Part shown: piece by piece, positions 26,550 through 33,153 of the stretch | Layout: every line of letters begins with the position of its first letter | Numbering within the stretch: position 1 is the stretch's first letter | From: an uncultured Gemmatimonadaceae bacterium | Lineage (GTDB): Bacteria > Gemmatimonadota > Gemmatimonadetes > Gemmatimonadales > Gemmatimonadaceae | Direction of reading: 5' to 3' | DNA: 33,153 bases | Assembly (NCBI GenBank): GCA_964626245.1 | Contig: CAZVDJ010000001.1 | Coordinates: 1-33,153, forward strand | The notes under the pieces: generated by a model | The model's database searches: none | Told to the model about the DNA's origin: nothing | Seen by the model: only the letters and a program-made list of their open reading frames with translations | Made by a program: the position numbers and the translations under genes

Positions 26550-26565
26550 TGGCACCCGCGTTGCC
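26550..26565 (+). promoter_or_regulatory. Sigma-54 (-24/-12) promoter TGGCAC-CCGCG-TTGCC
   Basis: Read directly and confirmed by codon indexing. GG-N10-GC spacing is exact and the TGGCAC matches consensus fully. Its 3' end is 69 nt upstream of the OMP ATG (26635), on the same strand. Confidence 0.65.
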
Positions 26566-26634
26566 TTCTCCAGTGGCGTCGCCGCCAGCGGCGATACGCA
26601 CCCAACACCACACTCACGATCGACTCGCCTTCAT

Positions 26635-28035
26635 ATGCCCTCCGCCACCTTCGCGCCCACATCCCGCCCTGTCTGCCCGGTGTCGGCACACCAGCACCTG
26701 GTCCGCGCATCGGTCGCGGCCGTCATGCTCGTCCTGGCACGGCCGGCCACGGCACACGCGCAGCAGCCGCTCTCACTCACGTTAGGCGGCGCGGCCCGCA
26801 TCGCAGCGGACCGCGGCACGCAGACCGAGGCCGCCCGCGCACGATCGGCACAGGCCGATGCCCGCGCCGTGCAACGTCGCTCGGCGCTGCTGCCGTCACT
26901 CTCGACGTCGACGCAGTACAGCGCCCGGACCTTCAACACGGCCTCGCTCGGGCTCAACATGCCCACGCCCAGCGGCGAGCCGGCGTTCGACACACGCGGC
27001 GAGGTGCTGGGCCCCGTGCGCTCCACCGACCTGCGCACGCAGCTCTCGCAGCGCGTGCTGGACCTGCCTGCCCTCTATGGCTGGCGAGCCGCGGGCGCGG
27101 ACGCGGAAGCGGCGCGCTTCGGCGTGAACCAGGCCTCGGAGGAGGCGGCCGAGCGCGGTGCGCTGGCCTACCTGGCGGTGGTGCGCGCCGAGGCACGCAT
27201 CGCCGCGCGCAGCGCGGATTCGGCGCTGGCGGCAGAGCTGGTCGACATCGCGCGGCAGCAGGTGCAGGCAGGCGTCGGCATCGCCCTCGACGTCACGAGG
27301 GCCCAGGCGCACCTGGCCGACGCCAGGGCGCGGCTCATTGCGACCCGAAGCGATCGCGATCGTGGCCTCCTCCAGCTCAAGCATGAGCTGGCGTTGGCAG
27401 CCGAGGCGCCGATCACCATCGCGGATTCGCTCGCCGACCCCGGCTCCGAAGAGTTTGACGAAGATCCGTCGGGCCTGCTGCAGGCGGCCCTGGCACGCCG
27501 CGCCGACTTCCTCGAGGCGCAGGCGCTGAGCGTGAGCGCGTCGACCCAGATGCGCGCGGCCCGTGCCGAACGCTACCCGGTGATCTCGCTCTTCGCCGAC
27601 CAGGGGCGCAACGGCAAGGACGTCGATCGCCTGCTCGACACGTACTCGTACGGCATCCAGGTGTCCGCGCCCCTCTTCGACGGCTTTCGCGCCTCGTCGC
27701 GCGCCGCGGAGCAGAAGGGGCGTCAACGCGAGGCGGAAGCCCGCATGGCCGACACGCGCCGGCAGGTGGAGACCGACGTGCGCTCCGCGCTGCTCACGCT
27801 TCGGGCCACGCGCGAGGAAGTGGCGGCGGCGCAGGCCCGCCTGACGCTCGCCGAGCAGGAAGTCGCGCAAGCGCGCGAGCTCTTCAAGGCAGGGATCAGT
27901 GGCAACAGTGACGTGATCAATGCCTCCATCGGGCTCAATGGCGCTCGCGACCTCGTGATCGACGCGCTCGCCCGCTACCACCAGTCGCGCGTGGCGCTGG
28001 CCAACGCGCAAGGCACCACCACGCAGATCCGCTGA
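26635..28035 (+). CDS. TolC-family outer membrane efflux protein
   Basis: ORF 26530..28035 trimmed to ATG 26635, 466 aa. Signal-like VAAVMLVLARPATAHA/QQ. Duplicated OEP pattern (LSLTLGGAARIAADRGTQTEAARARSAQADA...; LLQAALARRADFLEAQALSVSASTQMRAARAERYPVISLFADQG...). C-terminal ARYHQSRVALANAQG. Confidence 0.85.
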   Translation: MPSATFAPTSRPVCPVSAHQHLVRASVAAVMLVLARPATAHAQQPLSLTLGGAARIAADRGTQTEAARARSAQADARAVQRRSALLPSLSTSTQYSARTFNTASLGLNMPTPSGEPAFDTRGEVLGPVRSTDLRTQLSQRVLDLPALYGWRAAGADAEAARFGVNQASEEAAERGALAYLAVVRAEARIAARSADSALAAELVDIARQQVQAGVGIALDVTRAQAHLADARARLIATRSDRDRGLLQLKHELALAAEAPITIADSLADPGSEEFDEDPSGLLQAALARRADFLEAQALSVSASTQMRAARAERYPVISLFADQGRNGKDVDRLLDTYSYGIQVSAPLFDGFRASSRAAEQKGRQREAEARMADTRRQVETDVRSALLTLRATREEVAAAQARLTLAEQEVAQARELFKAGISGNSDVINASIGLNGARDLVIDALARYHQSRVALANAQGTTTQIR

Positions 28036-32300: not shown

Positions 32301-32511
32301 GCGGCGGGTCGAGGTGCTGGTGCCGATCGTCGAGCCGGCGCAGTGCGAGCGGCTGGATGCGATGCTGGACGCGGCCATGGCCGACCCAACGGGTTGGCGG
32401 CTGCAGTCCGATGAGTCCTACACGCGTGCTGCAGCTTCGGCATGGGACGAGGCCAGCGCGCAGGCGCGCCATGCGCGTGGCATGCTCACGGAAGGGACGG
32501 AGGCGTCCTGA
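29314..32511 (+). CDS. ppk1: Polyphosphate kinase 1 with a roughly 385-aa N-terminal extension containing a CYTH (triphosphate tunnel)-like domain
   Basis: ORF track 29311..32511; ATG at 29314 overlaps the preceding stop. PPK1 hallmarks: [42 protein letters not shown] (N domain), [45 protein letters not shown] (phospho-His region), [46 protein letters not shown] (C2 domain). N-terminal CYTH-like strands: [61 protein letters not shown]. Confidence 0.85.
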   Translation: [1065 protein letters not shown]

Positions 32512-33153
32512 TGCGCCATTTCTTCCTCCGCCTGCGCCGAGCGGTCGCCGCGGTGATGCTTGCCAGTGTCGTCCTCCTGGCAGGGGGCGCCGGGCGTCCT
32601 CCCGCCGCGTCTCCCACGGCGCTGGGGCGGTTCGACCTGCGGCGGCGCGCCGCACGGCAGGTGCCGCTCCCGTCGGAACTGCGCGAAGTCTCCGGGCTGG
32701 CCGTGGACGCGCGCGGCGCGCTGTACGCGCACGGGGATGAACGCGGCGTTATCCGCCAGCTGCACGCGGCCTCGGGACGCATCGTGCGTTCGTTTCCCAT
32801 CGGTGATCCCCCGGTCCGGGCCGACCTCGAGGGAATCGCCGTCGCCGGCCAGCAGCTGGTGGTCATGACAAGCGATGGACTGCTCTACACCGCCACTCTC
32901 GGTATGGAGGGGACGGCCGGCCCCTTCACGCGCACCGACACCGGGCTGGGGCCGTGGTGCGAGCTGGAGGGGATGGCGTACGACCACGCACGCGACCTCC
33001 TCCTCATCGGCTGCAAGCTGCCGGCGCAACCGACCGGCAACCGAAACGTGACGCTCTTCCGCTGGTCGCGCGCGGCCGGGCGCCTGGCCCAGCCGGACCG
33101 CATCACCGTGCCCATGTCCCAGGTCACGCGCGCGAGCGGGGTGTCGCGCTTTC
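32511..33153 (+). CDS. Secreted SdiA-regulated/YjiK-like beta-propeller protein, N-terminal 214 codons (continues past the right edge)
   Basis: Absent from the ORF track because it is open at the edge. My own translation from ATG 32511 (1-nt overlap with the ppk stop, TGATG) has no stop to 33153: MRHFFLRLRRAVAAVMLASVVLLAGGAG...LPSELREVSGLAVDARGALYAHGDERGVIRQLHAASGRIVRSFPIGDPPVRADLEGIAVAG... Signal peptide plus SGL / DxEGIA motifs. The family call is from recollection. Confidence 0.6.
   Translation, partial: MRHFFLRLRRAVAAVMLASVVLLAGGAGRPPAASPTALGRFDLRRRAARQVPLPSELREVSGLAVDARGALYAHGDERGVIRQLHAASGRIVRSFPIGDPPVRADLEGIAVAGQQLVVMTSDGLLYTATLGMEGTAGPFTRTDTGLGPWCELEGMAYDHARDLLLIGCKLPAQPTGNRNVTLFRWSRAAGRLAQPDRITVPMSQVTRASGVSRF

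Follow-up and report, generated by a model that had tools for sequence, protein, structure and literature searches.

Which of the genes at the 3′ end of contig CAZVDJ010000001.1 belong with the long polyphosphate kinase encoded there? The window (the whole stretch analysed, 33,153 nt, with a G+C content of ~71%) ends in five co-directional open reading frames (ORFs), for a TolC-like outer-membrane protein (OEP), a small protein, a membrane protein, a polyphosphate kinase 1 (PPK1) and a β-propeller protein, which an initial annotation had taken for one coupled unit. Comparison with related loci (L001 etc.; homologous proteins carry P-numbers, such as P0026) points instead to two juxtaposed units, an exporter OEP unit at 26412-28364 and a polyphosphate module that would run from 28316 to beyond the end of the window. 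The core of this module appears to be an enlarged PPK1 whose gene is translationally coupled to that of an inner-membrane protein of the DUF4956 family, and the module has so far been seen only in Gemmatimonadota-type genomes.

Polyphosphate plays a central part in how bacteria survive stress and in biological phosphorus removal, and it was as a polyphosphate accumulator that Gemmatimonas was originally isolated. To our knowledge, the positioning and regulation of PPK1 are poorly understood. The architecture described here, which occurs throughout the lineage, combines CYTH-like, Nudix-like and PPK1 domains with a dedicated DUF4956 partner, is found once as a fusion with that partner, and is linked in operons to phosphatase and Omp85 genes. 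It offers a lead on how phosphate-storing Gemmatimonadota place or control polyphosphate synthesis. The searchable literature yielded no description of CYTH-PPK1 fusions, of this architecture or of the module.

The long polyphosphate kinase

The catalytic core of the kinase is complete. All four domains (PF13089, PF02503, PF17941 and PF13090) score above their cut-offs, TIGR03705 is matched at 617.8 bits (cut-off 465.85), and the core aligns end to end with the solved PPK1 structures 1xdo and 9uuh. The active-site histidines are kept, the segments GIKTHAKV and RYLEHARIY aligning in the best-scoring alignment to PGLKIHAKL and RYLEHDRVY of 9uuh_A. By each of these criteria the protein is a PPK1, which by homology would make polyphosphate from ATP. 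It resembles the E. coli enzyme (PDB 1XDO/1XDP) in its four domains, its end-to-end alignment, both histidine motifs and its TIGR03705 score, and differs from it in having ~380 extra N-terminal residues, a DUF4956 partner instead of ppx, and linked envelope genes.

The N-terminal region, modelled with AlphaFold at a pLDDT of 84, holds two domains. The first has the eight-stranded triphosphate-tunnel fold; Foldseek matched it to YgiF (5a60; E = 8e-8), ThTPase, class IV/CyaB-type cyclases and SaTTM (to E = 1e-5), and its profile matches YgiF at E = 0.0013. Against PF01928 (CYTH; cut-off 23.2 bits) the window protein scores 14.5, and three of its relatives exceed the cut-off (P0044, 29.5; P0012, 24.4; P0009, 23.6). 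The CYTH-PPK1 fusion reported in the initial annotation is thus borne out by these relatives and by the structure model, the window protein itself lying below the threshold. An N-terminal ExExK metal-binding and catalytic motif is the hallmark of CYTH proteins (PMC8233210). Family alignments of the first domain contain no such motif: in strand 1 only Arg12 is conserved family-wide and the Glu positions vary. Further along the domain Arg44, Arg65 and Arg133 are also conserved. Structure and profile searches both rank E. coli YgiF, a CYTH-CHAD inorganic triphosphatase, as the best match for the domain, and the likeness extends to a CHAD-domain gene that adjoins the long PPK in L012 (13177-18880); in contrast to YgiF, the domain studied here has no ExExK motif and no fused CHAD domain, and is joined to a Nudix-like domain and PPK1.

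That Nudix-like domain is a second addition, overlooked in the initial annotation, which named CYTH. Foldseek relates it to ADP-ribose pyrophosphatases, among them 1v8y and 3x0r (E ~6e-6, root-mean-square deviation 3.4-4.2 Å). The Nudix box GX5EX7REUXEEXGU is absent from the family alignments, in which there is no REUxEE and only GSGE...R is conserved.

An exhaustive profile search with the PPK N-terminus recovered 411 related clusters, many of ~1010-1110 aa and several passing the CYTH threshold, whereas a word-indexed homologue search with the same region returned two proteins only. The best match to this region in a reference genome is only 36-43% identical, and the lineage of the window has no close reference representative. 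Between L001 and L003, the ratio of nonsynonymous to synonymous substitution rates (dN/dS) is 0.27 for the N-terminal region and 0.26 for the catalytic core, the two being equally constrained. The extension is also modular: L044 has a stand-alone CYTH-like gene (9974-10690) and a separate short PPK (11218-13374), and the PPK of L049 (9395-12304) has the CYTH-like domain and lacks the Nudix-like one.

The DUF4956 membrane protein

The membrane protein encoded directly upstream of the kinase had been described as a six-helix protein of unknown identity. Six helices are indeed predicted, and its homologues point to a divergent DUF4956 protein. It has no Pfam match itself, falling below the DUF4956 threshold; it aligns at E = 9e-14 to the DUF4956 part of P0026, and the homologues P0026 (40.7 bits), L020 (34.1) and L012 (31.3) all exceed the PF16316 cut-off of 30.6. 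A family profile search gave 1278 matches. All 120 among the matches listed carry PF16316 and are mostly ~350 aa long, and the named sources among these 120 are Gemmatimonadales, with one Cytophagaceae exception. We know of no function for DUF4956.

In the structure model (pLDDT 74) the membrane region has six helices, and the C-terminus forms an ACT/PII-like domain of β-α-β-β-α-β topology. A Foldseek search with this model matched only the generic ferredoxin-like C-terminal domain, and the membrane region found no structural match to any channel. Between TM4 and TM5 (TM, transmembrane helix) lies a basic loop, AAVRVGRSARRSTD, and the protein also has a basic linker. In clade A the soluble C-terminal domain is the best-conserved part of the protein.

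The gene was first called from the ATG at 28364, in the first of three TGATG stop/start overlaps (28362-28366, 29312-29316 and 32509-32513). Several observations place its start further upstream. L002, L003 and L006 share the conserved start peptide M-[ST]-P-V..N-V; orthologues retain a Met 16 codons upstream of the position of Met 28364, and have Thr or Ala at the latter; and nucleotide homology to L003 begins at 28314. The start is most likely the ATG at 28316. Because this start is conserved and Met 28364 is not, the TGATG at 28364 is probably not a gene junction. The junctions noted initially, one of 29 nt between the OEP and small ORFs followed by three of 1 nt, are all present as letters, and it is the overlap at 28364 that probably has no meaning as a junction. 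A still longer, 392-aa reading from a GTG at 28136 was ruled out, the third-position G+C content (GC3) in that frame being only 0.55-0.70 before ~28300.

Conservation of the linkage

L001 matches the window at 98.8% identity and continues beyond its end. In L002, where the membrane protein is 53% identical, the whole arrangement is kept, from the activator genes upstream of the exporter through the methyltransferase-like gene beyond the window end. L003-L009 have the order DUF4956-PPK-propeller-phosphatase-Omp85-methyltransferase-like, with no OEP gene, small ORF or exporter, and a divergent FGase gene lies upstream of the module instead. Where the exporter is missing, an O-methyltransferase (Methyltransf_3) gene comes after the module (L003 14777-16004; L007 15061-16345), and the same stretches hold a convergent GAF-sigma-54 activator homologous to those of the window. 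Between L001 and L003, dN/dS lies at 0.16-0.37 for all genes, which indicates purifying selection.

A wider sample of 45 reference loci, all from Gemmatimonadota metagenome-assembled genomes (MAGs), was obtained by a motif-based scan of species-representative genomes and then scanned with hidden Markov models. The genome scan used a 5-sequence alignment of the N-terminal region, a 12-sequence alignment being too diverse. DUF4956 and/or the phosphatase-Omp85 pair flank the long PPK in 27 of the 43 evaluable loci, in at least four gene orders: 14 loci have (DUF4956)-phosphatase-Omp85-PPK, nine have DUF4956 directly upstream of PPK or within ~1 kb, and four have DUF4956, a Ser/Thr kinase gene and PPK. 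No partner was detected in 16, and two loci were not evaluable. The kinases without partners belong mostly to one derived clade, and in two MAGs they occur alongside a module-linked copy. Two look-ups begun from DUF4956 homologues both led to genes adjoining a long PPK.

The linkage goes as far as a natural fusion of DUF4956, CYTH-like and PPK1 domains in P0026, and in L056 the DUF4956, phosphatase, Omp85 and PPK genes overlap or abut. The initial annotation had made the conservation of neighbours its own test. By that test DUF4956 is conserved, coupled and once fused, the OEP gene and 99-aa ORF are not conserved, and the propeller gene is linked in a subset of lineages.

Other genes occur at some of these loci. 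The opposite strand of L012 encodes a further PPK1 that lacks the N-terminal extension, and after it come genes for DUF4956 and an SdiA-regulated propeller. In L034 (3031-5472, with weak TPR matches too), L055 (8258-13517) and L056 (7221-9878), genes for Ser/Thr protein kinases are found next to DUF4956 and PPK or between them, a hint of phospho-regulation of the module.

Envelope genes beyond the window

The last ORF of the window is the 5′ part of a gene for a 292-aa SdiA-regulated/YjiK-like β-propeller protein with a signal peptide. Its full-length L001 orthologue matches PF06977 at 24.6 bits (cut-off 21); the partial window copy alone gave no match. In a PDB sequence search the propeller matched just the PknD β-propeller, and weakly. 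The 1-nt TGATG overlap between the PPK and propeller genes, pointed out initially, is retained in all four clade-A lineages (L001, L002, L003 and L007). As regards a secreted propeller within the unit, the signal peptide and the coupling stand; the ORF is cut by the window end, and the linkage is found in only some lineages.

In L001 the propeller gene is followed by genes for a purple-acid-phosphatase-like protein, an Omp85 protein and a methyltransferase-like membrane protein. The phosphatase-like metallophosphoesterase (15049-16203) has a signal peptide, PF00149 scores of 21.2-27 bits and a weak PDB match to PAP/TRAP, and the metal-ligand motifs of purple acid phosphatases, GDAG, GDNIY, GNHD, HH and GHEH, can be read in it. 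The linked Omp85 protein (16233-18797, and orthologues) is non-canonical and 854 aa long. Its N-terminal ~600 aa are conserved and contain no Pfam domain and no detectable POTRA; a PDB sequence search with the Omp85 came back empty. The methyltransferase-like protein has two transmembrane helices.

Proposed mechanism and alternatives

The best reading of these data, and in our judgement a probable one, is that the module encodes a membrane-tethered PPK1 co-expressed with envelope proteins that handle phosphate. The two N-terminal domains, having lost their hallmark motifs, would bind polyphosphate or a nucleotide ligand and/or dock PPK1 on DUF4956. The docking site would be the predicted cytoplasmic face of DUF4956, made up of the basic loop and the ACT-like C-terminal domain. 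The TM4-TM5 loop and this domain are predicted to face the cytoplasm, judging by basic residues ahead of the first helix, the count of six helices, the basic loop and the basic linker; the placement fits P0026, since its CYTH domain follows the last helix. Synthesis of polyphosphate would then both take place and be controlled at the inner membrane, by a kinase in fixed stoichiometry with DUF4956. The propeller, phosphatase and Omp85 proteins most likely would serve the same phosphorus economy, with phosphate release outside and storage inside; a role for them as a polyphosphate conduit is less likely.

Several points weigh against this picture. The window DUF4956 protein is the fastest evolving of the set (43-69% identity; dN/dS 0.37), lacks the canonical RFRNTLKDTKD loop and lies below the Pfam threshold. 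In L007-L009 an internal deletion in the DUF4956 gene (L007 5632-6342) removes the TM3-TM6 core and leaves two helices and the C-terminal ACT-like domain, while PPK and the genes after it are intact. The protein has been recorded on seven contigs; three of its loci were examined, each from a different sample. Given the loss of this core, the DUF4956 partner may be partly dispensable in that clade. The propeller and methyltransferase-like genes are linked in some clades only, and the 16 evaluable loci without a linked partner count here as well. A single sequence motif served to retrieve the reference loci, which form a biased sample. The assignment of the window to the Gemmatimonadota is taken from its relatives, and in the lineage of the window sigma-54 transcription may read through into the PPK genes.

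DUF4956 has been met beside a polyphosphate-making enzyme before. In Gram-positive bacteria it is contiguous with a VTC-type polyphosphate polymerase and CotH (and DUF4832), next to pel loci (PMC7112168); a further paper does no more than list the gene. The sets are alike in that the enzyme next to DUF4956 has a triphosphate-tunnel fold. They differ in that here the synthase is PPK1, the tunnel domain is without catalytic residues, the DUF4956 subfamily has an added ACT-like C-terminal domain, and there is no CotH, DUF4832 or pel gene. Taken with the published adjacency, the linkage described here gives the testable hypothesis that DUF4956 is the membrane partner of polyphosphate synthases.

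This raises the alternative of a machine resembling the eukaryotic VTC complex, in which polyphosphate made by PPK1 would pass through the CYTH-like tunnel and a DUF4956 channel into the periplasm, there to be processed or passed on by the phosphatase, propeller and Omp85 proteins. Were this true, synthesis of polyphosphate would be tied to its transfer across the inner membrane and then to handling in the envelope by the phosphatase, the propeller and a specialised Omp85. We regard it as unlikely. Polyphosphate export and metal sequestration, functions floated in the initial annotation, are likewise speculative. That a tunnel-fold domain and a polyphosphate synthase share an assembly or operon with a membrane subunit does parallel Vtc4 (PMC9911596), DUF4956 accompanies two unrelated polyphosphate synthases, of the VTC type (PMC7112168) and PPK1, the conserved basic DUF4956 loop is predicted to be cytoplasmic, and tight DUF4956-phosphatase-Omp85-PPK operons such as that of L056 would suit such a device. 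Unlike in the VTC complex, catalysis here sits in PPK1 and there is neither an ExExK motif nor an SPX domain; without the catalytic acidic motif the tunnel domain falls outside the VTC polymerases and translocases, and translocation would have to be supposed. The L007-L009 clade has lost the TM3-TM6 core yet keeps PPK and the envelope genes, the best-conserved part of the clade-A proteins is soluble, and the DUF4956 membrane region resembles no channel structure. Moreover, Omp85 proteins are known to handle proteins and not polyanions, and many loci have DUF4956-PPK without envelope genes. As background, Ppn2, the vacuolar polyphosphatase of yeast, belongs to the metallophosphatases too, which favours the VTC-like view, whereas Gemmatimonas is known for intracellular polyphosphate, which does not. 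We are equally doubtful of the wider form of this proposal, that the module is the bacterial counterpart of VTC and DUF4956 a general membrane partner or channel for two unrelated polyphosphate synthases.

It is rather improbable that the linkage reflects inherited synteny only, in which case the PPK1 extension would be a regulatory module complete in itself, and the DUF4956, phosphatase, Omp85 and propeller genes mere neighbours without a functional link. Every locus comes from one phylum, more than a third of the evaluable loci (16/43) are without linked partners, and the partners differ between clades, all of which speak for synteny alone; against it stand the natural DUF4956-kinase fusion, the survival of the linkage through several rearrangements of gene order, the overlapping start and stop codons, and the short PPK1 adjoining DUF4956 and propeller genes in L012. 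A membrane-tethered PPK1 remains our preferred reading.

The proposed exporter unit and its predicted promoter

Upstream of the OEP gene lie, in order, genes for a HlyD-type membrane fusion protein (MFP), two ABC ATPases and two ABC-2 permeases, and we assign the OEP gene, from its genomic context, to this putative tripartite exporter and not to the PPK module. The OEP protein matches PF02321 at 143.8 bits and TolC-type NCBIfam models below their equivalog cut-offs. Its gene completes the order MFP-ABC-ABC-2-OEP known from TolC-dependent MFP/ABC-2 efflux systems, a likeness that concerns only the 26550-28035 part; in contrast to those systems, the OEP gene here has its own candidate sigma-54 promoter after a hairpin. 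Both the channel gene and the 99-aa ORF were once counted as members of the unit; they adjoin PPK in L001 and L002 only, and both of these loci also carry MFP/ABC-2 genes upstream. They are absent from L003-L009 and from the neighbourhoods of all 45 reference-genome PPK loci.

The predicted promoter, TGGCACCCGCGTTGC, is the sole exact TGGCAC-N5-TTGC match in the window, where ~0.06 would be expected by chance from base composition. It has the -24 GG and -12 GC at exact spacing, is identical upstream of OEP in the window, L001 and the diverged L002, and has activator genes nearby. The MFP gene, too, is preceded by a sigma-54-type site (TGGCAATCCGGTTGCA at 20908; TGGCAACCCCGTTGCA in L002). Upstream of both sites is the element ATCTCGCGA...AATCC.GCGA, and both copies are kept in L002; the upstream activating sequence said to be common to the OEP gene and the ABC-2 exporter is therefore present at both promoters. 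TCGCGA is enriched, 7 of its 26 copies in the window falling within 710 nt. Two tandem paralogous GAF-sigma-54 activator genes lie further upstream (17269-19059 and 19063-20712), with an HTH_8 DNA-binding domain detectable in the second only. No sigma-54-like site was found upstream of the DUF4956 genes in 26 loci searched, and no sigma-70-like promoter in 26000-33153. Since both promoter regions carry these features and no such promoter precedes DUF4956 in the 26 loci, promoter and element appear to be part of the exporter regulon and not of the PPK module. The five co-directional ORFs and the sigma-54 site are thus as first described, with the promoter now assigned to the OEP gene.

The terminator-like hairpin after the ABC-2 permease gene would mark the end of the exporter operon, and its stem is retained in L002 despite base changes. 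Directly after the ABC-2 stop codon is an 8-nt tandem repeat, ACCGCACC, with four full copies in the window (26249-26290), three in L001 (7932-7955) and none in L002, a small variable-number repeat. The division into two units rests on this hairpin, on the exporter context of the promoter and element, and on the occurrence of the OEP gene and small ORF beside PPK only where the exporter is present. It is very improbable that all five genes form one stoichiometric trans-envelope system under the sigma-54 promoter, as the initial annotation proposed: they lie side by side, with short junctions, in the window and L001 as well as in the diverged L002, with just a weak terminator-like hairpin between the OEP gene and the small ORF, but these two genes are missing from every other PPK-module locus compared, the OEP promoter type and upstream element are common to the MFP/ABC-2 operon, the overlap at 28364 is probably no real junction, and the conserved unit also runs past the window end.

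The small ORF is conserved in L002 only, over its first ~65 codons, was not found in L003-L054, and has no match in Pfam or NCBIfam. Its differences from L002 by codon position number 20/14/40, with 26 synonymous-only and 26 nonsynonymous codons; this third-position bias rules out a spurious ORF for the first ~65 codons. GC3 is ~0.8 in this frame, which it favours to ~28300, and the membrane-protein frame beyond. The data indicate a real coding region, predicted to be of ~65 aa. The Cys/His tail, from which the ORF had been described as a small Cys/His protein, is unconserved and overlaps the likely start of the membrane gene.

Table 1. Positions of the features discussed, in window coordinates
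Feature	Position	Strand	Remarks
Hairpin (inverted repeat), terminator-like, end of exporter operon	26295-26328	+	Just past ABC-2 permease stop codon (26244)
Upstream-activator-like element GCGACATCGCGCGATCTCGCGACGTCGCGAAATCCAGCGAC	26412-26452	+	Same element in MFP/ABC-2 promoter region, 20771-20810
Predicted sigma-54 type -24/-12 promoter TGGCACCCGCGTTGC	26550-26564	+	70 nt upstream of OEP start codon
TolC-like OEP ORF	26635-28035	+	466 aa
Small ORF	28065-28364	+	99 aa
Divergent DUF4956 membrane protein	28316-29314	+	332 aa from ATG 28316 (316 aa if start is 28364)
Membrane-protein ORF as first called	28364-29314	+	316 aa
Kinase ORF	29314-32511	+	
PPK N-terminal domain 1, CYTH/triphosphate-tunnel fold without ExExK	29314-29958	+	aa 1-215
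PPK N-terminal domain 2, Nudix fold without Nudix box	29986-30363	+	aa ~225-350
PPK1 catalytic core, complete	30466-32511	+	aa 385-1065
Propeller open frame	32511 to window end (33153)	+	214 of 292 codons inside window

Elsewhere the window is dense in efflux genes: beside the ABC-2 system it encodes two AcrB-type RND pumps and a MacB/FtsX-type permease (1-921, 9324-12356 and 12524-15781, all on the minus strand). It also holds a DPP-IV/S9 peptidase gene (6007-8586), a 74%-identical paralogue of which lies just downstream of the module in L001 (19740-20951, minus strand).

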